NCBI GenBank assembly: GCA_040954595.2
Contig: CM082594.2
Span: 4,387,319 to 4,451,318 of the forward strand
Length of the DNA stretch: 64,000 bases
Origin: Balanoglossus misakiensis
Taxonomy: Eukaryota > Animalia > Hemichordata
Direction: 5' to 3'
The position numbers and the translations under genes are program-made. Below the pieces are notes generated by a model. It saw only the letters and a list, made by a program, of their open reading frames with translations. It was not told the DNA's origin and ran no database searches. Positions 1 through 34,831 of the stretch are shown piece by piece; position 1 is the first letter of the stretch, and each line of letters begins with the position of its first letter.

Positions 1-264
1 TGAAGAATTTTGACACAGCAAAAGTTGAACAGAAGAACTTACGAGTGGGCTCGCCGCCGGAAAGTTGGACCTATTAAAAGATTTAAGAAATCAAATAACA
101 CAAACGAAGCAAATAAAACATCAAAATCGCAACAGGCTAATCGAACTAATTATTCCTCAACCGACGCGGCACGTCATACTTGTTGTGTACAGAGCATCAC
201 CAATCATGGATGGCCAATATTAAGAATAGTACGCAGATTATAATGGTGGAAGTTCGAAACCTAC

Positions 265-1047
265 GGTATAATTCCAGCGGTGACACCGAGCGGAACTCTG
301 TAGGAACATATATCCATGTCTTTGGAAATATTTGAAAGAGCTTCGCCGAGAGCTAACGACGTGATGGAACATACGTAATCCACCATCTCTGTAGGGTGCA
401 GTTTCGAAAATGAAAATTCGGTATTAGTCAAGAGGAAAAACATGTATGCATGTATGTATGTGCGTGTGTGTGTGTCTCTCTCTCTCTCTATCTCCTGAAA
501 CCACAGTGGTGATGGTCAGCCGATCCTGTATATAAAAAACAACTTAGGCCTAAAAGCTAAAACGCCGTTCATTTTTTTCAAGTCCCCACAAAGCATTATC
601 AGCTTTCATTAGTGCATCGCTTACTAGGATCAACAAAAGAGTTAAAATCGCGCTTTCAGCGTTATATATAAACTTACCCAGTCCTTTCATGATATCTTGC
701 TTTGCATCAGCCAATGTCTTGCCTTGTTCCAGAGTGTTAACTTTGACAATGTCGCTCTGCAAAGAATGAAACCGGATGTGAGGAACACGTGTTTAATTCT
801 TTTGATGTACGCAGACCATTGCGGTGGTCGTCGAATATTTAGCTTTTATAAGAGAAATTGGTGATCTGATATTGTACATGAGACATCTGTGCTTGATTAA
901 TCAATCAATACTCACTCTGTTTTCTATGATCAACCTCCGAAAGTTAAACATGATCTGTTGTCTGGTAAGAATGGATGTCTGCGACCAGGCTGGGAATGCC
1001 TCCTTGGCGGCTGACACGGCCGCTTGCATCTCATCAGGTACATAAAT
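265..1047 (-). CDS. ALDH6A1: Methylmalonate-semialdehyde dehydrogenase (ALDH6A1-like), partial: three internal exons, 3' part continues left of the window, 5' part missing
   Basis: GT-AG exons 916-~1047 (PDEMQAAVSAAKEAFPAWSQTSILTRQQIMFNFRRLIIENR), 678-756 (SDIVKVNTLEQGKTLADAKQDIMKGL) and 265-388 (EMVDYVCSITSLALGEALSNISKDMDICSYRVPLGVTAGIIP) splice in frame. They match the MMSDH motifs AFPAW..TS.L.RQQ, LEQGKTLADA and KDMD..SYR.PLGV.AGI.P. Similarity stops abruptly at about 1039. Confidence 0.88.
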
Positions 1048-1107
1048 CTGTCATTGAATACACAATGTTGCTTATATTTTTTTTACTTATTTTAAAAGCT
1101 TTTCCAG

Positions 1108-4100
1108 ATAAAGATATATACAACGAAATGAATACCAAAGGTAAGTTTTTTCGCAGCCTGATGAATATTCCACTTCCTTAGTTGTGCTGTCAGTGATGCA
1201 TATCTTGATATCAAAAAGTTGTTAATTTTAAACTTTTTCCAGTGCAAGCTTTTTTTAAAAGCAGTGGTTCAAAAGTATACACGTTCCTATAGTTATCTAA
1301 TTCAGATTTGTTGTGATGGAGTATGCGATTTTTATATCATTAATATGAGGTTTATTACACAAATACTGCAAAGTATGCACGAGGACATTTGCGCCAGTAT
1401 CGCCCGATCGAAAAACCGCTCAGCTGAAACAGTGAGCAGCCATCTTTCTTTTTTGTTTACATGCGTTGGAGTGGGGGTGTCTTGAAACCGTCCGCACAAC
1501 AGCGTATTCCTGTACACGCTGAGTTGGGGAGCCTTGAAACTTAAGGCATATTTAACACGCGTTCCGTACGTACCGTTCCGTACGGCTTTGTTAGATTTTA
1601 TGACATGGTAATTTACCTCACCCTTGTCGCTTCCATATACACACTCGGTCATTAATTTTTTTAGAAAAAATAGCAGTTTTCCTTTTATTTTAGAAACAGT
1701 GCAGTGCCTATGGACATGTGAAGGAGGTGATAACACTATTCTTGGCAGTATTGGACCCCATACTATTACAGTGGGAACAATACGAACTTTGAAACCTGGA
1801 AACTGGCTGGTAGATAACGTAAGTTGTGTTGTAAATTTTAAAAAAAAGATTGTCACTGTTTATTGGCGTAAATTGTCATACAGTTATACTGGTGGTATCA
1901 CTGCGTGTTTCAGCATGCGCTCAAATGGATGTGGCCCATCATAACACATTACATAAGAATGCTGGTCATGACAATAGAACATTGTCACAATTATTACATT
2001 GTATTTTTATTTTTTTATAGGCTGTTGATGCATATCTGTTCTTATTGCAAAAAGCCTTGCCACAGTCTTCAGTAAGTCATCACTATAATATACTAATGCT
2101 CTTCACTGACTGTTTATATCTCTCACCTGGAGCGTGAATCGTCAGTGGTACAAACAAAACAATTGAAATATGCATGGACACATACATGTATTCACTAGGC
2201 ATTTAAGTTTCGTTTTTGTAAATCAACGCTGCTTAATAAATGATCAGACCTGACCTCCAGGTGTCACCATGAAAACAAACACTGCTTGCTAAACTCTGAT
2301 GATATTGCCCCATGTGTGAAACTCTGATAACTGAATATTTTTATATAATATGCCCCCCCCTTCTATATATAAATAAATATATACACTGAATTCTCTCAAC
2401 AGAATGCTGTTATACTACCCCATCACTTGTGTAGTGAAATAGTAATGGGAAAAAGGAAAACAGTTAAAAGGAAGAAAAAACTTGCGGTAGGATTTGCAGA
2501 TCAAGTAGCCTTAGGTTACAAAATAACAAATTTTAGTAGTAGTTAGTAGTACCATCTCTTCTCACCAATAAAGGATATTTCGGGTTTCGGCAGCCTATTG
2601 TCTGTCAAGTGAAATAATTTGCTAAAGCTATTGTTAATTTGCAAAATAGGGTTGAGACACTGCCCATTGAATCATTTATCCTTGCTGCTAATCTGGGGTA
2701 ATGGATCCGTAAGTGATTTGCTCAGATGATTTGAAAAGCAAAAAAAGAGCTCAGTTCGTTAAGATTTTCTCAGGTGTTTTCCTGACATGCACTAGTATTC
2801 ATGTACAGATAACTAACCTTCATTTTGAAGATTCTTGGTGAATTTTGATATTTTTTATTTACGATTCTTGTATTTTTAATTGTAGGAACAAATAGCAGCA
2901 GCAGATAAAGTTGTAGGGGTTATTTACAACCCAGGCCACTGGACTGTCTTTGTAAGTGCGATGAATTTGTATTTACAGACTGGTAGGGTTCTGATTGAAT
3001 TTTGTTTGACCAAAGTTTGCTTGGAGACAAATTTTAATTAAGATTTTAATGCAGTAATTATGCAATTGATATACATAAGTCACCTTTACCTGTATCAATT
3101 CTAATTGAAATGATAACTCGGTTTCATTTGCTCTATCATTTTTACTTTTCATCAAATATGTCAATGTTTAGTGATGCGAAGAGGTTTTGATACACCCAAT
3201 TCTTGATAATCACACATAAATCTATTGTATAAATATGTGCTCTGTGACCAAGAGGGTCATTGATGGCATTTTTGTTATACTAATTGGTACTTGTTTTATG
3301 TACAGTGTGCTGATATGGTCAAGTGCACCTTTTGCCTCTTGGATCCATTACGTCAAGATAGGGACTTTAGACTTGAAATGAACAATTGGAGGTATGTACA
3401 GGAAATCATTTTTAGTCCTCATGGATGCAGTCTGGCGGGGACTTACAGATTGGGTCCTGTGAGTCTGTCTGTCAGCAGCTATTTCTCAGACACCCATGAA
3501 CTGATTTTGTTAAAACCTGGCACATAGGCATTTTATTGTAGTGTCCGTGTGCATGTCAATTTATTTCAATTCAATCCAAGAAGGCTGCCAGGTGGCTATT
3601 TTGTTGTGAAATTTGGTTGCCTTTGGGCCGTAAATGAACTATCCCTAAACACATTTTGTTCAAAGTTGGTATAATAACATCTGGTGAGCACATCGCAAGG
3701 TACACTTAAAGCTTTAAAGAAAATATGAAAATGCATGTACTGCAAAAAGAATATGTCACAATTACACTTGATTGGCATAACTTTATTGTCATCTGTAATG
3801 GTTTTAACTTTCTTCAGTGAGTTTCTTGGCTATCTTGGACTGAAGAGGTCATGGAAGGCACTGAAGCTACCACATGACACTCAGCAAGATGGCTCATCAT
3901 GTGGTGTGTATGCATTAGAGGTGAGTGTTTTGAATTGTATTTAGCTGCTCTGTTCACACAACAGTAGACTAACCCACTAGTCACTTGGCACTTTTTTGCC
4001 TGAAGATTCTTAACCAATTCTGTTGTTCTCTAATTATCTTACCATTTGTGTGGGGTTTCGTTACCTCTCACCAAGCCATCTCATAGCTTATATATTCACT

Positions 4101-7100
4101 AGTCACTCGCCATAATATCAACACGAAAAACACCTGAAATTTGCTTACTATACCATAGCATTATATAGCCAATACACTGGGAACAAGTGCCTGTCTTTCT
4201 TTTTATCTGTGTTCCATTAAACCCCCAGTAATACTGTCGTTAGGCTGTTTTCCACTAGTATTTTTTTCTGATAAGAACTGCCATGTTTTGATTATGGAGT
4301 CAATACACACTAGGACAAGTTTATTAGATATGTTTTAATGCAAATTATCTTTTTCTTTATGTGAAACCTGTGTTTAATTTTGGCAGCACTAAATTGTGTG
4401 CACCAGCCTGATAATGAGTATCCATGTTTACAAATTTGTGCCGAGTATTGGGTGGAAATTTGTGACTTTCTTGTCGACAAATGATGTTTCAGAGAAAACA
4501 TTCTGATGAATTCATTGAGTGTAGGAAAATTTACATGCAGGCCAGCTTTTAACGATGGAGTGAAAAGGCTATAATTATATTAGAAATGTCATGGTATTTC
4601 CCTACAGTTTGCTGACCTTTTTCTGCAAGGGAAAAAGGTATTTAGTTTAGACAGACAAGACACACGATTGAAAATAGCAGTAAAGATAGTAGCAGAGATC
4701 GGTAGGTGAAGCTCAGGGCTAGATAGTCTTTTGTACAATTACCAAGTGCATGTCGTGTTTTTATCTAATCAAAGGGACAATAGCGATTTTTAGGTTATTT
4801 TTTTCAGTGTTTATGTAAAATTTGAAGGGGAAGTCTGGTCCAGCAGATTTCTACATAATTTTGTTGCTTTGAGATTACTCTTTCAGAAATAAAAACTTTT
4901 CGCATGAATACATCACACATTTTTTTACAATAACAAGGGAAAGTTGGCAGAATTTCCAATATGGTGTTTACTGTAATTTGAATCCTAGGGAAAACACGCC
5001 AAATCTAACTTCTGCCCAACATGATGTGGGTGATACCATTTTCCGATTGGTAAACAACTGCTCTTGATTGTTTATCAACTGCACTGTAAAGTACAATCAG
5101 TTGCTATGCAAATACACCCAGACTGGCGTACACTGCAGTGACCTCAAAGCCAGCAAATTATGTAGAAATCAGCTGGACCGGACTTCCCTTTAAATTCACT
5201 GGTCAACATGACCAAGCTGATTGCACTTACACAAGCTGTGTTCAAAAGCTGTGTCATTCAAACATCTATTGTCTGAACTTATGATTCTAGGCTCACACTA
5301 ATTATGATTTTTCCAGACTTATCTATTCAAATGTGTAGTTGACACAGAATTATAACTAACTCATGCAACTGCGATGTTATATTCACAACCTACATTGTAA
5401 TCTCTACTCTTTCTGTTCATAATCTCAACTACAGCAATTGATTGCACAATATAGTTTTGAAATTTTCATAAGAATCCTTTAAACATTAATATGTTTACCT
5501 TGTGTAAAAAATAGTATGGTTTTACTTTTAAGGCAGGAGACTGCCCAGTGTTATTACATTATTACCTTGTATGTTTTCTGTAGAATTTACATGCAGGTAT
5601 AGGTATGGAAGAAACTATACTTCAAATGTTGTAAAATTGTTTCCGTACATACATTCTTCCCAACCCCACCACTTTTCCTTCACTGAGAATGCATTTATTA
5701 GGTTTGTGCATGTGATGCTGCATCTTTTTCCTACAAGTTAATATATGCCTGATCTTCTTTACACGCAGATTCCACCAAAAAAAGATGTCATGGATGTGGC
5801 AAGGGTAGCCCTAGGGTAAGCATCACTGAACTCCTAATGAAGTATCGGTAATAGTTTTGACTTTTTGGACATTGGTTTCATGGCTGCTGGCCATAGAGTG
5901 CATAGTCAGGAGAATCAACATCCAATGTTAAATACAAAAATGAATGCTTCAGAGTGACAAATTGCAGTTTTAGGGACATAATACGACATCTTACTAAATT
6001 GGGTCCATTTTATGACTGAGCTCACAAGCCAATGTGGTAAGCCTGCAGTGGCTTTGAATTGGTTAAATATCAAACTGGGGATAAAATAATTGAGCATAAC
6101 AATAAAATGCCATATACAAATATGTGAATGAGATTCATTTGTTATTTACATTTCAGATGTCATGTGTATCATGTGGCAGAAAGTACCACACAAAGTGCCA
6201 TAGGCAATTGAAATGCTTTATTTGTACAGTGACTTGTGGTAAGTAACTGCGATTTTTGGCTATTTGCAATATTTTTGTTCATGTTTCAAGTCCAGATACA
6301 GTTCTACTCGCTAATAGCATGACGAAATGCCCAGTTGTTAGAATATCAATGTAACATGTACCGTATATGGGTAATGGCCATTGTTATTGTTGACAAATGA
6401 ATTCAAGGCCAGACTAGAATTCAATTTTCAACAATAAAATTGCTGATTGTACACATAAAAGCTGTGTTGCAAAGCTAAATACTGGCATTTATTCATGCTT
6501 TAGGCAGTCAAACAATAAATTGCAGTCCCTACCAGAAACAAAACATAACTTTCTATAGTTTTAGTTCATGTATTCTATAATGTTTCAACATGGCTACGGG
6601 AGTAGACCAAATAACAATGGTTAAGACTCATGAATTGTGATCAAAAATCAACAAAACTTACAGCTGATGACCCTCAATTAAATGATTGCTCTCAAGTTCT
6701 TTCTCAGATATGATCTTGCATTATTTTTTGCTTTCGTTGATTCTGTCCAGTGGATACAGAAGACCGTTCTGGTGAAGAAGTTGCTGCCATCCAAAGTGTG
6801 GACAATCAAGCTGCCGATGGTAAGATCTTGTTAAATTTGTTTTGCTTATAACAGCGTTAAAACAATGTGGTCAGTAGTTGTACATACTAGCTAACTTAAG
6901 TTGTGAACTATATCTAAAATTTCACACTTTCAGCCAATTTTTATATCTTTTGCCAATTTTGTTGGACTGTAACCAAGTTCTTTCTCAGATATGATCTTGC
7001 ATTATTTTTTGCTTTCGTTGATTCTGTTCAGTGGATACAGAAGACCGTTCTGGTGAAGAAGTTGCTGCCATCCAAAGTGTGGACAATCAAACTGCCAATG

Positions 7101-9525
7101 GTAAGATCTTGTTAAATTTGTTTTGCTTATAACAGCGTTAAAACAATGTGGTCAGTAGTTGTACATACTAGCTAACTTAAGTTGTGAACTATATCTAAAA
7201 TTTCACACTTTCAGCCAATTTTTATATCTTTTGCCAATTTTGTTGGACTGTAACCAAGTTCTTTCTCAGATATGATCTTGCATTATTTTTTGCTTTCGTT
7301 GATTCTGTTCAGTGGATACAGAAGACCGTTCTGGTGAAGAAGTTGCTGCCATCCAAAGTGTGGACAATCAAGCTGCCGATGGTAAGATCTTGTTAAATTT
7401 GTTTTGCTTATAACAGCATTAAAACAATGTGGTCTGTAGTTGTACATACTAGCTAACTTAAGTTGTGAACTATATCTAAAATTTCACACTTTCAGCCAAT
7501 TTTTACTTGCTGTTTACTTTCTGAAGAATGTTCCCATCAGTTGCATATTGTATCAACAACACTGTCCTGATCTCTACTGAAGGTGTGAAGAAAAAAAGAA
7601 GATGTATGTACGAAGTCCCCTCATTGTTGAAACTAGCGCATAACAAGAAGGCAAAAAGGTATGTAAGGCTAAAAGAAAAATATTGTTCCTCGTGTGATTT
7701 TTTTCGACAGAGGAACAGAAGCGGCAAGCAAAATGTTAATGTTGCTTTTTTGTTAAAAAAAAAAATCAAAATCAGAAAATGGATAAGCAGCAATCCCAAG
7801 GAACAATTCCATTTTTCTTCCTGGCCTAAGAATACTTTCACCACAATGACATGATTGCCAGGCAGGGTCTCCGTCTTTTATGATGACCTTATTCACCCTT
7901 GTTTGGTGGACGGAACATTTTGATATAGGCTTAACAAACTTTTTAAACTTTTCATGAATGCCACCTTAAAATATTGTCATAGATGATTTGTTTTAATTAA
8001 ACATCACGCTGTTTCATTATTAATGTTTCAGGTATAATATTTCCGAAGATGAATTACTGAGAAGAACAGGGTCACCAGAAAAACTGTGCCCATATACAAT
8101 AAATTCAATGATGAGATGCGCTAAGAGCAACATCAACAATTTAAAAGAAGATCTACGAGCCTGTGCCATCCCTATTCATAAACAATCAACATTAACTTCC
8201 TCATTCACGAGGTTGTGTGAAGGTACGATTCACCTTGAAATAAAAACATTCAATGCTGCCTGTACCTACATATGTTAACTAAGCCTAGATAGACGACTGT
8301 AAAACATGGTCTTATTTTAAGGGATGAGTTTGAATAGTATTATAATGTCATGCATTCACACATTTTCTACTTAATAACCATTTAATACTTCTAAAAGTAT
8401 ATGTCTGCCCTAACATTATCATGCCGAGAAACGCAACCAAATGCTTGCATGCACTTCACTAAGTATTATATCAGGGACCACACATCATGGGAGCTGCATG
8501 TATGTGTGTGTGTGTGTGAAAATTACTGCATATTGTCTTGTTGCTGCTGTTTACTTTTTTAGTAATGGGAACTTTCATTGTTTTCGTAATAGGTGAAGTT
8601 GAACACTTGTGTCAGGACTTTAAAAAAATGACTGGATCATTTATACATTTAGAAGAAACAGTTGAAGCCAACCAGGACAGACCAGAGGATAGCCTCAACA
8701 AAATGAATATGTTTAAGTGAGTATTAAAACATAAATAACAAACAATTATTCAATCTGAGATTCAGATGAAACGAGTGGGTAAAATTGGAAGGGAGAACCA
8801 TACATTTGCCTCGTGACTTCAGAATTCCCAAGGGTAGAAAGCGCATCCCCACTTATGATCTTCCATTTTGTAATAATAATAAAAAAATATTTTTAACAGG
8901 GAGACCTTGAGTGACCTGTCCAAAAGGCTGATGGGTGCATGCCATGAGGCCGATTTGGTCACGCATGGCATGACCAGTGCAGTTGTGAGTACCGTTTCAC
9001 AGTTGCTGTATGATGCTGCAGACTGTGAAAGGAAGGCATGTCTTGAAGTCCTGGTAAGTGTTAAGTTCACATGTGATGTATTTAGTTTATTTTGCTGTGC
9101 TAAAATCTGTGGAATACTTGTGTCAATTTAGGGGTTAATTAAATTGAGCCATCCCTCTTTATGAGGAGTAGGATATACATTAGCTGAAGGATATATACAA
9201 TATATACAGGCTTCGTTGCTCTAGACCTCTATGCCAGATGACACCCTGATCAATGTGTTCCACACCAATACAAAATACACCTGTATTATGAGCATTTGAA
9301 AGTGTCACTTTTATCCACTGTGCAATAGAGAATAAGCTTGTTTTTGTTGTCTTTTAAGTGCGTATACAGTGCTTGGTGTAGTCGCAGCAATGCATTTTGG
9401 GATAATTGACAAATTACTATTAAAACTGACTAATTATTGTCACACTTTACATTCTGTAGACTTCCAAGAGAGGGAATGAAAGCGAAGGGTCAGCGGATCT
9501 AACTTCGCTGCCAGTAAAACAGTGA
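1108..9525 (+). CDS. Transposon-borne fusion protein: Ulp1/SENP (peptidase C48) + compact PHD finger + acidic repeats + AP-2 (TFAP2)-like DNA-binding/dimerisation domain, about 540 aa visible
   Basis: 18 phase-compatible GT-AG exons: 1108-1140, 1694-1818, 2021-2071, 2403-2486, 2886-2951, 3306-3391, 3818-3920, 4608-4701, 5769-5815, 6157-6238, 6751-6819, 7032-7100, 7313-7381, 7541-7658, 8032-8222, 8593-8716, 8900-9053, 9460-9525 (TGA; AATAAA at 9552). Ulp1 motifs: TLKPGNWLVDNAVDAYL, GHW, LLDPL, QQDGSSCGVY. PHD: CHGC..CVSC.RKYHTKC..CFIC. AP-2-like: EVP..L, YNISEDELLRRTGSPEKL, RCAKS, TRLCEGEVEHLCQDF, LVTHGM. Possible start ATG at 1128. Confidence 0.85.
3410..3690 (+). mobile_element. Possible Helentron-associated (DINE-1/HINE-like) non-autonomous fragment in an intron
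   Basis: Starts TTTTTAGTCC, has a short GTCT run, then ATTTCTCAGACAC...ACTGATTTTGTTAAAACCTGGCAC. This resembles HINE elements from memory; boundaries are uncertain. Confidence 0.35.
4826..5189. mobile_element. MITE with ~35-bp TIRs at a TTAA-type site (Kolobok/piggyBac-like), nested in an intron of the Ulp1 gene
   Basis: Left end AGGGGAAGTCTGGTCCAGCAGATTTCTACATAATTT is the near-perfect inverse of right end AAATTATGTAGAAATCAGCTGGACCGGACTTCCCT. Flanks are TTGA and TTAA. Confidence 0.7.
6693..7505 (+). repeat. 281-bp tandem repeat (~2.9 copies), each unit carrying a 69-bp phase 1-1 exon
   Basis: Units start at 6693, 6974 and 7255 and are nearly identical. Each has ag|TGGATACAGAAGACCG...ATG|gtaaga. 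Confidence 0.95.
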
Positions 9526-9873
9526 TACTTGGAGCACCTGTTCAATCAAACAATAAAATATTGATTTTTTTTTCTATTGACAAAGGAAATGCACATGTTA
9601 ATGTTCAACAGATTTGTCACATCAGTTGGTCAATTGCTTGTTCCCCCAATGTGTGACATTTGCAGTGCATGCATACTATGATTTCCAAGACTTCAATTGT
9701 TATTATTCCTCAATATACTTTTCCTCAATAAAAGTAAAGTTTTTAAAAATGGTACAAATCATGGAGAATTATGAGTAAAATATTTTATTGTGTACGCGTG
9801 AGCTAACAATATCTGCCAGGACAAAGTACTCAAGTAAGGCACACTTCACCAACATTAAAAAATAAAACTTGTT

Positions 9874-10527
9874 TATTACACCTCACGTATTATACCATAT
9901 TCGTGATTGGCTGAGACGCGCTCACGTGATATAGAAAAAAAAGTGATATAACATGGCTAGAGTTGATAAAGCCCTGTCGCGTGCGCTGATATTGCCCGCT
10001 GGGTTGTTTTGTGTTCTGCGCGCGACTTCTGCGCGTTCCAAACTGTCGTTCAATGGCTTCCTCCACGATCAGTCAACTCCCGCATCTATGGCTTCAAAGC
10101 GACACATAGGCTTAACACCTGTTCAACTGGACGATATTTTACCACAAACGGACAGTAAATACAACAAAATCGCAACCAACAGTGCAGTATTTTCAAAATA
10201 ATCTAAGTTCGAAGTAGGTATCGTATAATTCTTGGGAGATCGAGACATTTTACATTCTCAGCAACGTACGACATATGGACGCGCGTCTACGTTCTTCTAT
10301 GCCTGCCTTGTATGTACGTTCAAATGTTCGGCGTAATAAAATTAATAACACATGATGCTCGGGCAACATCACGATTTGAAGCCTGCCCTCGGGCTGGTGA
10401 TCTCTGACCACAATATTGATGATACCCTCGCCTGCGGCTCGGGCATCATCAATATTGTAGTCAGAGATCACCATCCCTCGTGCAGGCTTCAAATCGTGAT
10501 ATTGCCCTCGCTATCATGTGTTATTAT
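9874..10527. mobile_element. Non-autonomous element with a long terminal hairpin (Crypton-like), between the two MULE genes
   Basis: GC-richer island. Imperfect ~184-bp palindrome at 10343-10526 with central CCTCGCCTGCGGCTCGGG; other end TTATTACAC...TGATTGGCTGAG. The Crypton call is from remembered architecture only. Confidence 0.5.
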
Positions 10528-10953
10528 TTAATTAATGACAAAACAGACTTCTGAAGCCCCAGCAGCTACTTCATACATTTCATGTTTAAACAATGTTCAG
10601 TTTTAATGGATACAGTCCAAATTACACACTAAACACTACATGACTAGTTTTATGTTATGGACCATAACAAGTAAAATCTTCAATTTGGTGAAGATAGCTA
10701 GGTGAAAACGTAATAGATCAACAATTCAACTGTTCCTGATATAGTGAACATTATGGAAAGTACATGCAGTTGCAAATGGGTGCTTAAAGTGACAATGCTC
10801 ATCAGGAGACTAAACTGGCCAGTTTGTTTTCCTGATGAGTGAGTCCAGTGACTCACGAAACAACATTGTAGAGATTATACCGCCTATCGTTTCTCCATGC
10901 AGCTACCCTTACTTTATATATTTATGTATATATAAATACATACATACATGTGC

Positions 10954-13900
10954 TCAACGGTTTTTGCATGGTGTTATACGCCTTTTATTTGTCTTTACTT
11001 CATATTCTCTGTCTCCATCATGAGATGTGCATCTGATAGGTCTTTCAGAATTTCCACAAGATAAGTCATAGCTATGATCAGCTGAGTTTCTCTTTCTTTT
11101 AGTCCTATCAATATCTTTCCTATATGGATGTAGTGGCTTTATGAGCTTTACCCTAGTTTGAACTTCAAATGTGGAAAAAGCTTCATTGTGAGCCTTTTCC
11201 AACAAACTCTTTAATGAAGGGGTATCCACAAAATTCTCACTCAAACTCCAATTAAACAAATCCCTGATCATATCTGTTGAAGTCAGCTGGGCCTTGACAT
11301 CACTACATATTGGTGGTTGCACTTGTTGACACAGATCGTCTGCTGCAGGTGCAACAAGTTCTGGCTCAGTGTCCTTGTTTCTATAGGCCCATGCTAGCAT
11401 ACACAAACACTTTTCACTGTAACTACTGGCAATACAGGAACAAGACATATGCTTAAGATCAATAACATTTAAATTGCCATTGTCATACACTGTAAATTGA
11501 TCAGCCTCACACTTAAATGAGCCCGTTTGAATTATATTTTTCCCAATTTTGTCCCGCACGTTCAATATTTCAAAGCCAACATTTGATGAATGTAATTTAA
11601 CAAACAACAGATGTTTACACAATTCTCCCTTTGAAAATGCCAGACATTCACATGTATACCTAATAAGGTCAACCTTATAGTGAAGGGATGCTGTCCTTTC
11701 AGATGGCACATCCCAAATACCATCTGTATCTGTCATCTTCACACGCTTGTCATACCCTAATAGAAGCATTCTTTGTACACCCTCCTCGCTGCTTTTCTTC
11801 TTTATGGATAGTCTGCCAGCCAGATGCAACCCCTCAAGGTAACTAAAAGGTAAAACAAAGATTTTTACATACATTTACGAACATTTGGTCACACTCTCTT
11901 GGTGTTACATTTACATGATGTCAGTCAGCAAATTTCAGCAAAGTGGTTTCATATAAAATAAATGGCACTACCTGGAACATGGGGGAAATTTGGAATTGTG
12001 TGAAAAAAATGAATAAATATTGATAAAATTATCAAATCGAGAAGAATACTAAGAAACAAATAGATGTAGCTTCACATGTGAGGGTCTGTGCATAGACAAA
12101 TAGAGGGGGAAGACTCTACTGTCTATGGTCTGTGGTAATACACAACATTTTTGCTTACCTATAGTAGATTTCAACTTTTGTAGAAAGCAAGTTCAAGAGG
12201 TCATCAATTCTCCTATTTGCAATTCCCTTCAAAAACTGATACTTCATAGAATGGAAAAATCTGTAAAACAATGCCACAATTTAAATATCAATTCCATTTC
12301 TTCAAGCACATATATAATTATATCAAGTTCATGAAAACACTAGGTTAGTTTTGATCGAACTTTCAACATTGGACTTGATGTGATAAAAAAAACACATCCC
12401 GATCTCTCCTTTAGAATATTCTCTCAAAGATCTTCCAGAGAATGTTATGCTAGTGAGTAGTTCATAAATATACGCACTTCTGCAGCTAACTCATGAATAT
12501 TCAAGGTAGATTCTCTGCATTTAGCATTCCCAGTGTATACATATGTAAAAGCAGCGCATGATCATGTCAGAGATATATCTACATGGCTAATCAATTAAAA
12601 ATCACAATTGACGGCCCTCTACTTTTTCCAAGAAGACTGAAATCATTCTTAACCTTTCTGCAATATTGTTGGTGTCTTGGCCTGCATGATAAATCCTCCG
12701 ACCAAATTTGCTCCACATATGAGCCACAGAAATCCACTGATCTGTTAAGTACTTTGAGACATGCTGACTCCCAATTTCTTTATCAATTGCACCAATAACA
12801 GCAAATGATGTCTTCTCAAAGTCTTCTTTCTGCAGAAAAAAAAGTGATATGGGTTTCTTAATAAGTAAATGTGAAACAAGCACCCTAGTGGCCAATCTTA
12901 TTAGAACAGAAAAAGGGAGAACAGTGTCAGTTATAAATGAAAAAAATATGGAAAGTTTTGCTCCAAAATTTAGGCGAAAAAAATATGGCGGTCAAGTAAT
13001 TCTTGAGCAGGTTTTAGAGAAGAAAATTGCTGACGGACAGAAGGATGACAAGAGCCAATCAGCCCATATGATAACGTCCACGTCGCTGACAGCTGAGTGA
13101 AAAAATAGACAACTTTACTCATCCGATTGGAAAGCTACCGGTATTTGTACTTACCGTAGTACATTCTTTCATTTTATACAAAGCATCAATGACGGTGTTC
13201 CTTTTCTCAAGATTTGACTGGCCTGACAAACCACCTCCTGAAGTCTTCGTTAACCAACGATGAACTGCCTTTATTAATATAAAATTATATGGTAAAATAT
13301 TAACAAATACCGTCAATGACAGTGTTGCTCATAATACCATCTTGATCAGGGGAAAAAAAAGATATTAACTCGATGAGTATTTTAAAACTTGCAGACTGAA
13401 TAATTACATGAAAAAAACTTGAACATTGGTGTATGTTATCTGTTCATTTAATAAGTAACGTACTACGGAACTTTTATCTCTAAAACAACTTTAAGTTGTA
13501 GTGTCATTTTAGAGTCATATGCAGATCAGAGTGTATTAAATTCTGCTTGAACAAGTTGGCTAAACATTTCATAAATCTTGCAGTTGTCAGCATATTAAGA
13601 CTGATAGCTGAAATCCATTGAGACCAAAAGTATCAGTGAGACAGTGACCAGAGAATTAAATCTAATGACCTACTGCAATACATGGAACCAGCACAGTAGA
13701 ATATCTGACTGTGGAAATACACTCTGTAGAGCTGCTATTTCTGTTGGGTCTTTATCAACCATAATCACTCTTTAAGAAATTAGAATTGTAATTGTTAATG
13801 CAACAAAACCCTTACCTTTTGGCATTTCTGTCACAGGGGTACTTGGATAGAACAGATATAAATTTGCTGAAATTGCATGTGTGTTCATTTGAATACAAGA

Positions 13901-15117
13901 GATCATAATATCAAAAAGCACAAATACTTTGGAAGGTGCCATCACATAAACCTTACATGACTTCATAACATGGAAAAAGTAGCCTTTGGGTAAAAAAAAC
14001 ACTGTGTTATATGCAGCATAATTGTAATAGCTAACAAAGGAAGTGAAGAACATATCCTGTAATACAGCTAACAAAACCCTGAGTATTGTGAAAATAAGAA
14101 CAAATCAGCAACATTAGTTAATCACTGACTTTATAACAGCTTCAAAAGTACCATATCTGAATGATTTATTTAGCAGTAAAGAATATACCAATGAATTTAC
14201 CTTGGACTGATTGTTGTAGCCTCATACAATTTAGTGAAACATCGCTCCAGAACTGCTTTGTCTTCTCTGCTGATGATGATGAATGCAATAGGCACACCAT
14301 GCCCAACACCATTCTTGACAATTACAGCATAGAATGCATAACCATACGCTGTTATTCCTCTGTATGTAGCATCTATAAATACCATACTTTTTCCGAATTT
14401 CAGATATTGGTCTTTCTGAAAGGGACTCATGTAAACTATTTCTAATGGTTGGTTGGCAACTTTGGAGAATGGTTGATAGTGGATGATGTTTGCCTGTAGA
14501 TCACTTTTCAATAGTTTATCTACGCTGATGGCATCATTTCGATCAAACCTGGTTTCAGCCAAGGCCTTGTTTCGTAGATATTTTACATCTGCTGGTGTGG
14601 GGTAGTACTGGCGGTTTTTCATGTCAAGCTCCCCTCTGTTTTGTGCCCACTGAGAGCACTTAACAATAATTTCACTGGTCTGCAAATTTTGTAAGGTCCA
14701 GAGCCTTATTAGTTCAGTCAGCTCAGGTGATATTTTGCTCACGCGATAGTCATCACTGTTAGACAGATCGTGTCCCACATGGTGACTTCGTAATCTAACA
14801 ACACACACCTGATGGGTACCCACTTTGGTGAAACAAAAAGACGCGTATGAGTTGCAGCCATTAGCACGGGTCAGATTTGGAGCTCCAGAGGATTTACCCT
14901 TTGCTTTCCCTCCTCTTTCACACCTAAAATGATAGTTCCCATCTGTTTGCTTCCGCAAACTTGTGTATACCCCAAGACCTCTCTCAGAAAGGGAGGCAAG
15001 ATGTGCGTTAACAAATTGTTCCTCTGATCCACTCTCTACAACATGAAGTGAACGCTGAACTCCAGTTGGCTCCTTGCGTAACTTTGATTCCACAATGGAC
15101 AGTACTGAAGAATTCAT
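10954..15117 (-). CDS. MULE/Mutator DDE transposase with N-terminal Zn-binding (WRKY/FAR1-like) domain and C-terminal SWIM fingers, about 764 aa; one apparent splice-donor lesion
   Basis: Exons 15117-14201, 13769-13673, 13268-13155, 12829-12654, 12260-12159, 11842-10954. Motifs: FRCERGG..GC..HHVGH, VFIDATY (D1), GHGVPIAFII, VIMVDKD (D2), VFP...LLCWFH (CxxH), TNNIAER (E), SWIM CECLAFSKGELCKH. Confidence 0.92.
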
Positions 15118-15176
15118 CCTGTAAAATATTAAATAATGGAAAAATAGGCATTGCTGAGTAAGTGTATGAAACAAAT

Positions 15177-16304
15177 GTCTGCCCTCAGATGCTATGCAAT
15201 GACATGTATAAACATATGAAATGAATGTCTGCCCTGAGGGCAGCTAAGATATAGTGTTGCCCTCAGGGCAGATGCTATGCAATGACATGTATAAACATAT
15301 GAAATGAATGTCTGCCCTGAGGGCAGCTCAGATATAGTGTTGCCCTCAGGGCAGATGCTATGCAATGACATGTATAAACATATGAAATGTATGTCTGCCC
15401 TGAGGGCAGCTCAGATATAGTGTTGCCCTCAGGGCAGATGCTATGCAATGACATGTATAAACATATGAAATGAATGTCTGCCCTGAGGGCAGCTCAGATA
15501 TAGTGTTGCCCTCAGGGCAGATGCTATGCAATGACATGTATAAACATATGAAATGAATGTCTGCCCTGAGGGCAGCTAAGATATAGTGTTGCCCTCAGGG
15601 CAGATACTATGCAATGACATGTATAAACATATGAAATGAATGTCTGCCCTGAGGGCAGCTAAGACATAGTGTTGCCCTCAGGGCAGATGCTATGCAATGA
15701 CATGTATAAACATATGAAATGTATGTCTGCCCTGAGGGCAGCTCAGATATAGTGTTGCCCTCAGGGCAGATGCTATGCAATGACATGTATAAACATATGA
15801 AATGAATGCCTGCCCTGAGGGCAGCTCAGATATAGTGTTGCCCTCAGGGCAGATGCTATGCAATGACATGTATAAACATATGAAATGTATGTCTGCCCTG
15901 AGGGCAGCTCAGATATAGTGTTGCCCTCAGGGCAGATGCTATGCAATGACATGTATAAACATATGAAATGTATGTCTGCCCTGAGGGCAGCTCAGATATA
16001 GTGTTGCCCTCAGGGCAGATACTATGCAATGACATGTACAAACATATGAAATGTATGTCTGCCCTGAGGGCAGCTCAGATATAGTGTTGCCCTCAGGGCA
16101 GATACTATGCAATGACATGTACGTACATATGAAATGAATGTCTGCCCTGAGGGCAGCTCAGATGCTATGCAATGACATGTACAAACATATGAAATGTATG
16201 TCTGCCCTGAGGGCAGCTCAGATATAGTGTTGCCCTCAGGGCAGATGCTATGCAATGACATGTATAAACATATGAAATGAATGTCTGAGTTGCCCTCAGG
16301 GCAG
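15177..16304. repeat. 83-bp tandem array (~13.5 units) with 26 palindromic TGCCCT(G/C)AGGGCA sites, in the predicted transposase intron 1
   Basis: Unit GTCTGCCCTGAGGGCAGCTCAGATATAGTGTTGCCCTCAGGGCAGATGCTATGCAATGACATGTATAAACATATGAAATG(A/T)AT starts every 83 bp from 15227 to 16140. A 60-bp unit at 16140 is followed by a full unit at 16200. Confidence 0.97.
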
Positions 16305-16692
16305 ATTACTAGTATTTCCCGCCTGCCAAATATGCTAATTTTTACCCCAGAGGTCTCATATTCAAAACCAAATAGCCTAGCTTGCCGTTTATAAGTTATA
16401 ACCTCTTAATATTGCTACGATCAGAGCAGATTGATAGATATACACATGGAGGTATTATCGGATATTCACTATGCAACGAATTTCTAAAGAAGTTGTAATT
16501 TTTCTGTCATGTTTAATATATATGTCTCGTGCATGCATCATGAGGGCCTGGTCAGCTGCGAACCATTAGATATTACTAACAAAATAACATCGTTTGCAAA
16601 TTTAATTGCCCATGCAACTCTGCTAATGTAGTCAGTACGAACGTGTTGATATATTATGTATTTTCAACATATCTTTCGGGAATTTAACTTAC

Positions 16693-16904
16693 CTTCAACA
16701 ACGGTAGGATCCCACACGAGGTGTAATCTGCAGCATGCAGGACACTGGCAGCCAGGACTTGGCACTCGCCGCATGGGTTCTTACGCGGGACTATTTTTTG
16801 TGACGTCATTGAATGTTGTGTACCCATTTGCTGCTGCCCTGAGGGCAGCGCTGCCCTCAGGTCATTTTCCAGTTGCAACTTCTACCGTCTGCCGCTGAAC
16901 CCTG
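16693..16904 (-). promoter_or_regulatory. Putative transposase promoter and non-coding first exon with AP-2-type sites, near the element end
   Basis: Strong donor AAG|gtaagt at 16693/16692 on the - strand pairs with acceptor ttttacag|G ATG at 15118. Perfect TGCCCTGAGGGCA at 16835-16847, imperfect TGCCCTCAGGTCA at 16852-16864, and CRE-like TGACGTCA at 16801-16808. Confidence 0.5.
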
Positions 16905-17125
16905 CGCCCTCAAGCGGTCGGGACAACTAAGTCATATAAATGGCCATAGAGCTAGAGAGTCAAAAGAAGTCAAAATGATAGCAGGCTAGAGGGTCGCATT
17001 AGGTCAAAGTTTACAACTGGTAACATGTGAGAGGACCGAAGAATCGCCGATCTGATGGCCATGGACGTGTGACGTTTGTAGGAGTCCAATTCCAATTTAT
17101 TTTATCTGTAGCAGAGATAAAGAAA

Positions 17126-20100
17126 ATGGATTTGACTTTCCTTGGCACAGCATCGTGTTTTCCGATGCCAAGTCGTGGGGTGTCGTGCATTGTATTGCGT
17201 CAAGGTGGGTGTGTGACTCGACCAGGCTGCGTCGCCAGTGTCATGTCGTCTACTTTTAGTCTCTTTGCATCATGGAGTTACCACTGTGATATTCTGGCTT
17301 TTAACTGGACATTATTAAGACAAAGTAGGACAGAGGTTATAATATAAGATAATACGCATGTGTTTGCACTAAAATTATTGCTTTGTTTTCAACACTATTT
17401 TTGTTTTTAGAAGGAGAATGTTGGATGTTTGATTGCGGAGAGGGCAGTCAGATTCAAATACACCAGTGTAACATACGGCCAAGCAAGATCACCAAAATCT
17501 TCATAACTCATCTCCATGGGGACCACGTAAGCATAATTTTTCTCATATCAACAGTATTTTTGAAATGTGACAAGAAGTAAATTCTGTTGTTCAGAATCAT
17601 TACTACTGGTAATGCAGAAATTCTCCATGTCTGATAAAAGTAATATTATCACATGTAAATATGGGAATTGATTTTTAAAAATCATGATTGTTACAGAGCA
17701 CAGTGTGAGCAAAATTGTTTTCTTTAAAACCCACAGTTGTTTGGTTTACCTGGACTGATGTGCACAGTTGGACAGACTTGCAGCGAGAGAGATTCGGCGT
17801 TGGAGCTTTATGGTCCCGTGGGACTCCGGAAGTACGTACGCGTGTGCCTGGAGCTGTCGCGTTCCATGCTCGGCTTCGACTACGTGGTCCATGAATTGTC
17901 TGTCCCCGAGGAGGAGTTGCCTGTTGAATGGGAGGTGAGTACCATAACTGTTTCAAATTTTATATATTGTTTGTAGTGTGGAAGGACAATTGTTCTGGCA
18001 TCCGGAAGAATATCCTTGAGTTGCATTTCTGGTGTTGGAATAAATTGTGCAGGAGTATAAAGGTCCCTGATGTTGTTTTACCGTACTCCACAAATTTCTC
18101 ACACCACCACACACTACTCCTTTGGATTTGATGGCACACTGAAATTAACTCATGGACCCCCCCCCCCCCCCCAAATCAATCGTCCATGCATTTCAACTAA
18201 CACTAAATTTGATGGGTTTGATCCTTAAAGGCTCCTATTTCTTGACATGGGCGTTTCTGTAGATATAAACAATAGACCAAATTGTCTGTGCACAGAACTG
18301 CTTATTGAGGAACAAAGGGGACAGCTGTGCATAACATATGCCCCTTTAGTACAGAGGATATTATGACAACCTATGGTTCAACATTTGTCGTTGGGTTGGG
18401 CTACGCTACTCACTGTGTGGTAAACCAGGCTAAGTAATTAACTGAGATACTGACAGTACATACTGTTTCATCTGTTTGAGAGACGTGGCACCCCGATCAT
18501 GCAGCTGCAGGACCTGCGCATCTGAACGAGAAGGAAGGAAGATTGATTGAGCCTGATGAAAATGGAGTCTGGCACTGGTAAGTGTACTACCACGTCACCA
18601 CAGTCACTTGATTGCTTCCCTGTCACTGTCTCATACAGAGTATGGTGTTTTACCAATTTCAAAAATACGCATCTGATTCATCTGGGTTATTTTCAATTTA
18701 TTTCCCAGCTGTGAAACCACTCAAATGAAGGTGATGGCGGCCCCACTAACACACAGAGTGCCGTCGTTCGGGTTTGTTATCCACGAAAAAGCACAGCCGG
18801 GCAAGTAAGTACATACTAGAACCGAACGAATAATATTGTAAGTTATAATAATATTTTTTTTTATTTAGTTATAGTGACAGTGATGTTCTTTCTTTCTTTT
18901 GTGACTCACCAAATTTCCTTTCTTCACAGACTAGACCCTCAAAAACTCAAAGATAAAGGTGTCCCGCCTGGACCACTGTATGCACGAATAAAAAATGGCG
19001 AAGCTATCGTTACAGATAGTGGCGTTACGATACGACCAGAAGATGTACTTGGCCCAGAAAGACCAGGCAGAAAAATAGGTAAGTCTTCAGATATTATATG
19101 CCCATTATTTGCATTGTGTGCATTATTAGATAGCCTGAGGGGATATTTTTCAAAATTTGACAAAAATGTTTAAAAATGTGTTTCTGTTTTATACAGCAAT
19201 GGCATAAATGTGAATATTAGCATTCTTGCTGCTTTCTGTCTAGCCAATATTTTTGATTTGTCCATTTTGTTTTGTCTTTTCCATTGTTAGTCATACTGGG
19301 AGACACCTCATGTAGTTCCAAGATGGCTGCCATCTCCATGGACGCAGATGTGGTGGTTCATGAAGCTACGTTAGAAAATGAGCTGCGGGAAAAATGCATT
19401 GAAAATGGGCACTCAACACCAGGTGGGTAGAGTATGTAATGAATGTATGCGTTTGTCCCCCCCTGGTTGCAGTGGCTTTGTGTTTGGCCCAGTTTTCTTT
19501 CACTGAAAAGACTGTATAGACCTAGAAATTTGCAGTTGTCTGTATTGGTATCATACCACTGTACAGTGATGTCATCAGGTCACTGGGGTGTCACTCCACG
19601 AAAGATATCCCCCAGTCATGTATGGGAAACAGAACTGCAGTTTTGATGATGGTGGTGGTGGTGATGACGGTGGTGGTTGTGGTAGTGGTGATGGTGGTGG
19701 TTTCAAAGTCTTTCCATGTAAAATCAGCCTCTAAAGTATGCTTGCAGTCATTTGCATAATCAACTGAATTCGAGCGACGTCAAAGACTAGTGCTTCATTC
19801 GTCTAACACCAAGTCCTCGTATAAATTTGTCCCCCTGCGCAGCGATGGCCGCGGAATTTGCCAATGACATAAATGCCAAGAAGTTAATTCTGACACATTT
19901 CAGTCAGCGCTACAGACCAGCATCACACATATTGAAGGTAAGAATTATTTTCTGTCAATGATTCTTGTTACATATTTGAAACATGGTACATGTATTGTCA
20001 GACATTTACTTTAGAAGATATTCTATCGATCATTCTTTACTGCATAAAGTGAAAATTTTGTCAGGAATTCTTTTTCTGACCAAAAAATTGGCTTCAGTAC

Positions 20101-21380: not shown

Positions 21381-21542
21381 CATTGTTTAAATATTGGCAT
21401 ATTGTCGAAAAGGCTTGTTATGGAACTTCGAATTTCTTCAAGTATTTAGAGCGTAAAACGGCCATTGTTTAAACATTTGGCATATTGTTGGAAAGGCTTG
21501 TTATGGAACTTCGAATTTCTTCAAGTATTTAGAGCGTGAAAC
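21381..21542. repeat. Two-copy ~82-bp direct repeat overlapping the glycosyltransferase stop codon
   Basis: CATTGTTTAAA..TTGGCATATTGT..AAAGGCTTGTTATGGAACTTCGAATTTCTTCAAGTATTTAGAGCGT occurs at 21381 and 21463. Confidence 0.9.
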
Positions 21543-23127
21543 ATTTAAGGTTCATGTTGAATAAGTTGTGTTTGACCATCGCGTTTGTGTCAGGATTTTC
21601 TCTGTATTTTAAGTATTTAGCGTTTCTAAGTGGAACGTGCAGGATGCTCACGTCGCTGCAACTGGCCACGCGAATTTTCCCCAGTCTGTTGATGAAATAC
21701 TCGGTGTGTCCGACCCTCTCGTACTCTGGATCGAAGACTCCCCGGCGGAAGGCTTCCGTTCTCGCCATGAAGAACATGGTTATGGAGTCCGTCATGTAGC
21801 ACTGCGGGTACTCCGGGAGTTGGTGGTAGTGGTCGCCGCTGTGCCGGACGAAGCAGTCGCCGCCCGTGTCGTCCCCGCCAGTGCGCCAGTGCACCGTCCG
21901 GCAGCCGAAGCACTCTCCCCGGGACTCGCCCTCCCCGTTCTCGAACGTGCCGCCGATGACGTCCAACTTCAGCCGGGGGTCCTCGAACTTCTCGACGAAC
22001 CGTTCCAGCGTCGTCCGCTCGGTGAATACGAAATCGTCGTCGACGTAGAGGAAGTACTTGGTGCGGACCTGGCTCAGGGCCAGATTCCTCCCGGCCGAGG
22101 CGCCCTCGGCGAACGGCATGATGTACTGCTTGACGTTGGTGGCGTTGATTTTCCTGGGGTTCTCCGAATCGTCCGCCACCACTATGGTCATGCCAGGGTA
22201 GTATTTATTTACGCTGGCGACCAGATTGTTTACGCATGTGTACCGCTCAAACGTCTTCGTGATCACTGTAACCTTCTGTTTAATGTCGCCCCCGTCTCCG
22301 GGGTCAAACAGAAATGGAACCGTCGTGCGGCGTATGTGAATATGTATCGGAAAAATGAAATTGTTGAAATCAAACTTGACGGCGTCTCGGTCGTTTATGT
22401 CATACACGGTGCTGTTGTAGAAGAGATTGGCCAATACCTCACCAAGCAAGGCACTTGTGAGCTTACCGCGTATTTGCAACGATTTTGTGTCGTTTCCTGT
22501 AGTTGTCAGGTCTTTCGTTAGAGCAGTCGGGCGCAGGTACAACACACCTAGTGATTTCATCGACCGGAGTCCGATCACGAAGGTGCTCCCTTCGGGGAAT
22601 TGTCTGACCACTTCTGGATGTACCGCCAGTCCGATCAAGCGCACGCTCCGCAGCGGCTCCACGGTTATCCCGCTGCCGATGTACTGGATCGGAGACAAGG
22701 CGCGGCAGAGGGACGGGGGCTCTGTCTCGGCTTGGTGGTGGCGCGTCCATTCCTCCGCTTCCCGGAGTCGACGCCCGTCGGAGGGTTCGTCCAGCGGTCC
22801 GTACGTGTCCGCACCGTCTTCGCACGAACAGGGACTGGAATCGCTGTCGACTTGAAACGGTAGTGGTGAGTTCCGCTCTGCTCGTTCCGACGGCTCCATG
22901 TCACCGACGTCGTCCGCACGCGTGAGCAGTCCTTCGTAGATCTTCCTGGACAAGGTCGACTCGAATCCGAAGTAGCTGCTGTTTCTCTGTGTGTTTGAGA
23001 ACACCGAAAGCGCGGCAAAATACAACACTGAGCACAGCAGCAGACAGCAAGTCACGGCAATCACACGTACAGTCAGTCTCGAAAGATGTAGACGACGATT
23101 CATCGCCATGTTGGAAGCGGCGCGCAT
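21529..23127 (-). CDS. Beta-1,4-N-acetylgalactosaminyltransferase (B4GALNT1/2-like), intronless type II membrane protein
   Basis: 532-aa ORF with N-terminal TM (VIAVTCCLLLCSVLYFAALSVF), SCSC stem, G.TVEPL, VTVITKTFERY, IVVADDS, YIMPF, GRNLALSQVRTKYFLYVDDDFVF. The start may be the ATG at 23109 instead. Confidence 0.9.
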   Translation of the reverse strand: MRAASNMAMNRRLHLSRLTVRVIAVTCCLLLCSVLYFAALSVFSNTQRNSSYFGFESTLSRKIYEGLLTRADDVGDMEPSERAERNSPLPFQVDSDSSPCSCEDGADTYGPLDEPSDGRRLREAEEWTRHHQAETEPPSLCRALSPIQYIGSGITVEPLRSVRLIGLAVHPEVVRQFPEGSTFVIGLRSMKSLGVLYLRPTALTKDLTTTGNDTKSLQIRGKLTSALLGEVLANLFYNSTVYDINDRDAVKFDFNNFIFPIHIHIRRTTVPFLFDPGDGGDIKQKVTVITKTFERYTCVNNLVASVNKYYPGMTIVVADDSENPRKINATNVKQYIMPFAEGASAGRNLALSQVRTKYFLYVDDDFVFTERTTLERFVEKFEDPRLKLDVIGGTFENGEGESRGECFGCRTVHWRTGGDDTGGDCFVRHSGDHYHQLPEYPQCYMTDSITMFFMARTEAFRRGVFDPEYERVGHTEYFINRLGKIRVASCSDVSILHVPLRNAKYLKYRENPDTNAMVKHNLFNMNLKCFTL

Positions 23128-24367: not shown

Positions 24368-28657
<4,290 letters not shown>

Positions 28658-30715: not shown

Positions 30716-34831
<4,116 letters not shown>

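Follow-up and report, generated by a model that had tools for sequence, protein, structure and literature searches.

A Mutator-like locus of the acorn worm Balanoglossus misakiensis with a candidate protease/AP-2-like protein and an array of AP-2-type palindromes

Introduction

SUMO has a role in the silencing of transposons in animals. Ulp1 proteases recur across many DNA transposons, and what their substrates are is an open question for which suggestions only have been put forward (PMC2836005). Might an animal transposon encode such a protease together with the means to bring it to the element's own control region? This question is raised by a locus of the acorn worm Balanoglossus misakiensis, of which we analyzed a window of 64 kb (contig CM082594.2, assembly GCA_040954595.2; coordinates are those of the window). 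It contains the gene of a Mutator-like element (MULE) transposase and, convergent with it, a second gene for a protein with a predicted Ulp1/C48-like protease part, a C4HC3 finger and an AP-2-like region, and it contains an array of AP-2-type palindromes. Here the protease is paired with a predicted address label, the AP-2-like domain with its guessable motif, and with an address, the motif array in the control region, which makes the question testable. An earlier sequence-only reading of this DNA had joined these parts into one transposon reaching from 1040 to 16930. We give a probability of about 0.4 to the view that the locus is a low-copy Mutator-like element whose AP-2-like domain docks the protease on the element's own array, similar to the VANC proteins of Arabidopsis.

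Results

The second gene comes out as proposed in the sequence-only reading: 18 exons splice in one single frame to 536 amino acids (aa), with GT-AG borders at 17 of 17 introns (Table 1). Exon 14 joins in frame only with the acceptor at 7541, and the 13-nt exon at 1128-1140 is the presumed first one. In the protease part, the residues W42-x-x-D45, H109-W110, D126, Q164 and C170 follow the order of the Ulp1/C48 enzymes, with W42 at the place of the Trp clamp. His-Asp-Cys triad, Gln ahead of the Cys and Trp clamp, in this pattern and spacing, are typical for the Ulp1/C48 family. No exon had a Pfam match to Peptidase_C48 when scanned singly (22-41 aa each), a PDB sequence search with exons 2, 7, 15 and 17 and a four-row profile returned no SENP or TFAP2 chain, and exon 7 had no match among plasmid sequences. 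The catalytic residues of the C48 protease claimed before are in place; we assign the protease to C48 by motif alone and predict that it cleaves SUMO, with NEDD8 or ubiquitin as other possible substrates.

The ligands of the finger that follows are identical in P0001, a model of 213 aa from Ptychodera flava (XP_070551136), so that the C4HC3 pattern is found in both species. The last spacer has 5 aa and no Trp; in usual PHD fingers this spacer is longer. Pfam PHD gave no match on P0001 at E<=10, though P0001 spans the whole finger, and the PHD rows returned by Foldseek (E=6.0 and 9.9) come from a poor structural model, that of P0001 with a predicted local distance difference test (pLDDT) of 44. 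What had been named a PHD finger keeps its ligands, and neither the Pfam match nor the usual spacer length goes with them. P0001 further includes the spacer repeat and the beginning of the AP-2 region, and therefore the finger-AP-2 fusion is present in a second species. The model is truncated at both ends and leaves the frame after the first half of the AP-2 exon.

Exon 15 (63 aa), scanned as one exon, matches PF03299 (TF_AP-2) with E=1.2e-4 and 22.4 bits over profile positions 17-79, the curated cut-off being 23.4. P0001 matches the same profile with E=0.03 (positions 8-47) and in the same register as exon 15. Exons 14, 16 and 17, scanned singly, had no Pfam match. The model of exon 15 (pLDDT 74) has four predicted helices; TFAP2 is missing among the fold matches listed for it and fold searches gave nothing significant (best Z 5.2), the same being true for the P0001 model, and ESM Atlas had no usable match. 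Together, the weak Pfam matches in two species point to a divergent AP-2-like identity, and in this form, below the Pfam threshold, the TFAP2-like domain of the sequence-only reading stands.

The palindrome TGCCCT(G/C)AGGGCA occurs in 27 exact copies, 26 at 15230-16303 and one at 16835, and zero times elsewhere in the 64 kb, which reproduces the earlier count and its restriction to the proposed element. At up to one mismatch there are 28 matches versus 0.01 expected (0 of 100 shuffles), and one exact 13-mer is expected 8e-5 times in the 15.9-kb stretch. Because the 26 sites are two per unit of one 83-bp minisatellite, whose units are 97% identical to each other, the sites form about two independent clusters and not 27 events. 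The array holds one CpG in 1.1 kb, and therefore CpG methylation could not block it. In run X2, the loop of the 83-base unit has a depth of 2419 versus 187-274 for the transposase contigs, i.e. 9-13 times as much, where contig depth is not copy number and these figures are from the contigs listed for runs X1 and X2. On this loop depth, a genome-wide satellite as source of the array, which had been named as a possible refutation, was rejected (small insertions are at 10^4-10^5), and so was an assembly artefact. A TGACGTCA box at 16799-16810, which we take to be CRE (cAMP response element)-like, lies beside the terminal double site between the transposase and the RNase Z genes. The region of the box is possibly a shared promoter of these two genes, and the double site may be a promoter element of the RNase Z gene that starts at 17126.

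Would the AP-2-like domain read this 13-mer? The TFAP2B consensus tabulated in PMC5449588, obtained by systematic evolution of ligands by exponential enrichment, is the same 13-mer, in agreement with the fit to TFAP2 motifs noted before. TFAP2A binds GCC-N3-GGC at 19 nM and cCC-N3-GGg at 336 nM, i.e. 18-fold more weakly; its main base reader is K257, S222 and S247 contact the outer pair and R254 contacts the backbone, and the exchanges R254A, K257A and R255G each nearly abolish binding (PMC10450164). In the Pfam register, the second protein keeps R254, A256, K257 and S258 of TFAP2A and has conservative swaps, K for R217 and R for K226. The outer-pair readers (S222, S247) and the outer G:C base both differ, which is suggestive, but only suggestive, of a retuning of the domain.

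The transposase gene on the minus strand, convergent with the second gene as described before, encodes a protein with both the DDE and the C/D-x2-H pattern (D249, D311, C332-x2-H335, E434) and with a SWIM finger after the catalytic domain (PF04434, 22.7 bits, cut-off 19.6). PF10551 (MULE) matches the partial exon of the window with E=4.3e-5 and two full-length relatives with 1.6e-16 and 6.7e-17. In the alignment, both relatives begin at the start codon at 15117 with their residue 1, which places the array upstream of the coding sequence. The sequence-only reading had put the 26 palindromes into intron 1 of this gene; their upstream position holds, and such an intron would require 16693-~16800 to be a non-coding exon. 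A coding role of this piece in the transposase was rejected, no frame joining it to the transposase open reading frame (ORF), and that it is exon 1 of the neighboring ALDH gene is possible, with no fitting frame either. In the window, coding exon 2 is followed by a donor other than GT (13673), and one base is missing at 13672 compared to the contigs of runs X1 and X2, in which the extra base has full depth; either the assembly is wrong at this base or this copy alone bears the lesion.

Among the proteins scored, the transposase has two relatives, one per genome, in Ptychodera flava (XP_070533937) and Saccoglossus kowalevskii, with identities of 56% to P0004 and 54% to P0005 (about 53-56% over the whole length). 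A profile search returned the same two proteins and no partial model near P0001, and 0 of 120 stretches of metagenome contigs held a transposase relative. A search of 1.84 billion representatives with the AP-2 exon gave three proteins, P0001 being the one true relative among them, and a word search among longer proteins gave nothing. No full-length protease-AP-2 protein was found among the representatives searched, which is weak evidence. For both genes, the closest relatives found are confined to acorn worms and are about equally distant. An older Saccoglossus model, P0006, carries a 12-aa tandem repeat in residues 1-85, before the transposase begins, and this points to a minisatellite of 36 bp ahead of the Saccoglossus transposase as well; judged by eye, the translated repeat is not what an AP-2 palindrome read in frame would give.

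CpG observed/expected is 0.41 and 0.35 in the two genes and 0.99 in the left flank, and in run X1 the contigs inside have a depth of 98-121, the flank contig one of 38. These values, the convergent layout, the existence of a version lacking the central insertion and the broken ALDH gene at the left edge speak for one mobile unit made up of both genes and the array. Of its proposed limits, neither 1040 nor 16930 is marked by a terminal inverted repeat (TIR) or a target site duplication (TSD), which in Mutator elements has 8-11 bp. A 10-bp TSD candidate, GTCATTGAAT at 1050-1059 and 16805-16814, was not accepted, as joining there fails to restore the ALDH frame. The ALDH6A1/MMSDH-like gene of the left flank (264-1040, minus strand) is diverged and broken at about 1040, and its 5' exons were not found in the window.

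A double-site pattern search of metagenome contigs gave 13 loci. Five AT-rich animal-like contigs from two assemblies bear degenerate arrays of 9-22 sites with a period of 25 or 28 bp (Table 1). Motif columns are kept better than spacers in two of seven runs, L013 (6/108 vs 27/135) and L014a (6/96 vs 42/120), and the other five are not significant; that the loci were chosen by the motif itself bears on this comparison. Neither window protein had a match in any of the 13 loci, whose contigs are short, and no relevant Pfam family was found in 64 of 98 ORFs from six loci and 3 ORFs from two others. The arrays fit either non-autonomous relatives or independent arrays for host TFAP2. The 28-bp period of the L013 and L014 arrays is also the site spacing inside the 83-bp unit.

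As for further features, the insertion between the two genes, which we take to be a Crypton-like miniature inverted-repeat transposable element, contains GCCCTCGGGC-type hairpins; a version of the locus without it exists, a contig joint 9872-10532 skipping 659 bp, and the insertion is polymorphic. Other small high-copy repeats lie within introns of the second gene at about 1350-1590, 4820-5190 and 6360-6460. The RNase Z gene is presumably ELAC1-like. In the Pfam scan of the window, which covered 132 of 156 ORFs, a 542-aa open frame at 21532-23157 (-) had Glycos_transf_2 and FKRP_N matches. Three tubulin genes are clustered at 24371-26266 (-), 30719-32487 (-) and 39828-41015 (+), the third having about 70 extra residues between its GTPase and C-terminal domains (Pfam coordinates).

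Table 1. Features of the window and palindrome arrays in metagenome loci
Feature	Coordinates	Strand	Basis or remark
ALDH6A1/MMSDH-like exon, left flank	904..1040	-	match stops about 1035-1040
18-exon gene, 536 aa: Ulp1/C48-like protease, C4HC3 finger, acidic spacer, basic patch like a nuclear localization signal, AP-2-like DNA-binding and helix-span-helix (DBD-HSH) region	1128..9525	+	splicing in one open frame
Exons 1-9 of the 18-exon gene	1128-1140, 1694-1818, 2021-2071, 2403-2486, 2886-2951, 3306-3391, 3818-3920, 4608-4701, 5769-5815	+	
Exons 10-18 of the 18-exon gene	6157-6238, 6751-6819, 7032-7100, 7313-7381, 7541-7658, 8032-8222, 8593-8716, 8900-9053, 9460-9525	+	
Ulp1/C48-like protease part, exons 2-8	1694..4701	+	motif positions
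Compact C4HC3 (PHD-like) finger	5769..6238	+	ligand pattern C214/217/226/229-H234-C237/243/246
281-bp unit x2.9, triplicates a 69-nt exon (acidic 23-aa spacer repeat)	6693..7505	+	98% matches
AP-2-like region, exons 14-17	7541..9053	+	Pfam TF_AP-2 match on exon 15
High-copy palindromic insertion between the two 3' ends, 72-nt arms	9873..10531	.	missing from main contigs of runs X1 and X2
MULE transposase, 764 aa, six coding exons: 15117-14201, 13769-13673, 13268-13155, 12829-12654, 12260-12159, 11842-10954	10954..15117	-	
Minisatellite with an 83-bp unit repeated about 13 times; each unit has two inverted 13-bp palindromes at a spacing of 28 bp (26 sites)	15186..16311	.	repeat and motif search
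Possible non-coding first exon of the transposase gene	16693..~16800	-	GTAAGT donor at 16692; start and assignment to this gene presumed
Second cluster: an exact palindrome and another with a single mismatch (16852), jointly a 24-nt inverted repeat	16835..16864	.	TGACGTCA box just left
Start of RNase Z gene, right flank	17126..17577	+	PF13691, E=9e-7
Degenerate TGCCCTNAGGGCA palindrome arrays, dispersed repeat families	L005, L010, L012		25-bp period
Degenerate TGCCCTNAGGGCA palindrome arrays, dispersed repeat families	L013:1372-1608; L014:744-1029 and 1382-1702		28-bp period

Discussion

The arrangement described here suggests how a transposon might keep its own expression going. The AP-2-like part of the second protein would dimerise and read the CC-N3-GG core, and would thereby bind the tandem palindromes upstream of the transposase. 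The bound protein would bring its predicted SUMO protease to the region that controls the element itself, where it would strip SUMO from repressive chromatin proteins at the array and lift repression, and the outcome would be sustained expression of the element. The array would have grown by slippage and would have been selected for more docking sites, as the VANC targets did. Two genes and array would form one mobile unit with a convergent layout like that of MuDR, its ends being degenerate or lost. The reading frames of both genes, the catalytic residues and the array with its confinement to this stretch are direct observations. In favor of the docking are the TF_AP-2 matches of one register in two species, the TFAP2A residues that are kept, with K257 among them, the exact TFAP2B consensus in two separate clusters that both lie upstream of the transposase, the known company of Ulp1 and PHD with animal Mutator transposases (PMC2836005) and the parallels to VANC.

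Several observations weigh against this view. The TF_AP-2 score falls below the Pfam cut-off, and S222 (to K), S247 (to Y), R255, K259 and N260 of TFAP2A are changed in the second protein, including a residue, R255, whose exchange in R255G nearly abolishes TFAP2A binding (PMC10450164). A 22-residue template from the same paper finds the expected register, yet 1549 of 2000 shuffles score as high, and in P0001 the template chose another register. Host TFAP2 is also able to bind this site type (cCC-N3-GGg, 336 nM; PMC10450164). None of the six variable columns in the array falls in the motif, which makes up 26 of 83 columns, but this is not significant (P=0.10), and the sites sit at one end only and are not spread over introns as those of VANC are. 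With regard to mobility, in run X2 the depth does not step up from the flank (bins at 224-323) to the interior (contigs at 187-338), the X1 and X2 contigs listed showed neither a further copy nor an empty site, and neither the 25 longest of 383 pairs in 1-20000 nor end-to-window blastn gave a TIR; a credible TSD was likewise absent. MULEs without TIR do exist (PMC6446971). In Ptychodera, the transposase (XP_070533937) and the P0001 model (XP_070551136) lie on different contigs, of 53.1 Mb and 50.6 Mb, respectively, and that there are only two transposase relatives, one per genome, also fits domestication. Finally, 5 of the 13 metagenome loci bear related arrays on short contigs that have no MULE, Ulp1 or AP-2 match.

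Other explanations have to be weighed with these data. One of them, which appears unlikely to us, is that the array is an enhancer for host TFAP2 that was amplified so as to raise expression of the transposase, e.g. in germ-line cells. The AP-2-like domain of the element would then have another role, or would act as a damper through competition or heterodimer formation. The palindrome is the human TFAP2B consensus (PMC5449588), TFAP2A and TFAP2B bind cCC-N3-GGg at about 340-360 nM (PMC10450164), the same palindrome is arrayed with a 25- or 28-bp period in animal-like contigs of two other assemblies, where it is better kept in L013 and L014a, and several DNA-contact residues of the element's domain are changed. 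However, a host-type protein would find here a site 18-fold weaker than the optimal GCC-N3-GGC (PMC10450164), no optimal site was amplified, and an AP-2-like gene beside an AP-2 array would be a coincidence. The array might also be a neutral, hairpin-prone minisatellite that resembles AP-2 sites by chance. We consider this the case for which least can be expected, even if 26 of 27 sites stem from one recent expansion, palindromes may seed such repeats and motif constraint within the array is not significant: a separate double site at 16835-16864, the expectation of 8e-5 exact sites in the stretch and the exact TFAP2 consensus beside an AP-2-like gene speak against it.

Two further readings, both rather improbable in our view, concern the function of the second protein and the mobility of the locus. 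The protein might bind the array and serve transposition, by bringing the ends together or by deSUMOylating transposase or repair factors for an element without good TIRs, or it might repress the transposase as feedback. The lack of a TIR and the position of sites near one end only would suit such a factor, as would the role in transposition or repair suggested for Ulp1 domains (PMC2836005) and the requirement of mudrB for integration (PMC6446971); synapsis would want sites near the left end, though, where there are none, and the array occupies the place at which one would expect a promoter or first intron. Alternatively, both genes may be domesticated single-locus genes of acorn worms that are neighbors here, head to head with ELAC1, and nothing moves. 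One full-length transposase per annotated genome with 53-56% identity over its whole length, the absence of TIR and TSD, the many introns and the missing depth step in X2 are in line with domestication. Against it stand the intact DDE in all three transposases, the ALDH gene broken at the left edge, the young tandem expansions and the depth step in X1, and also the Ptychodera model of the second gene, which is cut at both ends and off frame after the first half of the AP-2 exon as in decayed copies.

Going beyond the docking of the protease on the element's own array, one may tentatively extend the idea to a whole lineage, which we regard as possible although doubtful: an animal Mutator lineage, old within acorn worms, would encode a sequence-specific deSUMOylase, in which an AP-2-family domain retuned from the host GCC-N3-GGC to CCC-N3-GGG is fused to a Ulp1 protease and co-evolves with a CpG-free array upstream of the transposase, and the arrays in two other genomes would be non-autonomous relatives. 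If this retuned AP-2/Ulp1 protein is real, VANC would have its first counterpart in animals. Animals would then own a transposon-encoded, sequence-specific anti-silencing like that of plant VANC, acting via SUMO, and the second protein would be a natural DNA-targeted deSUMOylase. Such a protein would also hint at an exchange of the AP-2 domain between transposons and the transcription factors of their hosts, as is the case for WRKY-GCM and BED fingers.

Ulp1/PHD MULEs and VANC are known. Our literature search, which did not extend to Repbase Reports, subscription papers or supplements, found no paper on an AP-2 domain within a transposon, nor on AP-2 cargo with cognate sites; the sequence-only reading likewise knew of no such combination. 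Ulp1 and PHD accompany animal Mutator and Ginger transposases, Ginger1 having both (PMC2836005), and Ulp1 is also found in Cryptons (PMC3212892). The Ulp1-carrying Mutators, i.e. the MuDR families of hydra and lancelet and the plant KAONASHI/ULP1-MULEs, share with the present locus a MULE-type transposase that has both DDE and SWIM, as well as a Ulp1 protease and a finger of PHD type, and Rehavkus, described with non-TIR MULEs and VANC in PMC6446971, shares a PHD and a minisatellite within the element; 'AP2' does not occur in the main text of that paper. In contrast to these, protease and finger are found here in a separate convergent gene of 18 exons that ends in an AP-2-like domain, no TIR was found, and the minisatellite is built of sites of a transcription-factor type.

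The parallels to VANDAL/VANC of Arabidopsis are closer than stated before, because the targets of VANC are likewise repeated in tandem ahead of the transposase, and its genes, like the accessory gene here, contain exons and peptides in tandem copies (PMC5735166). The host is an animal in our case, the accessory protein consists of Ulp1, finger and AP-2-like domains, and the palindromic sites are at one end only; for VANC, binding and de-silencing have been demonstrated, whereas for the present locus they are predicted. General Pfam scans, in which no VANC sequence was compared, gave no VANC-type match. If binding holds, the locus would work like VANC by analogy, not being a member of the VANC family. 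With TFAP2/AP-2 the second protein shares the Pfam register over the DNA-binding domain, the kept residues R254, A256, K257 and S258 and the four predicted helices in exon 15, but it is very diverged, without a PDB sequence match, and fused to a protease instead of an activation domain. A convergent gene layout is known from maize MuDR. This element (mudrA and mudrB) likewise encodes a second protein (PMC6446971). CACTA elements are regulated by their own TnpA, which binds clusters of motifs within them (bioRxiv 10.64898/2026.08.24.746577); the DNA-binding domain of TnpA derives from a transposase, while the one predicted here resembles a host transcription factor family.

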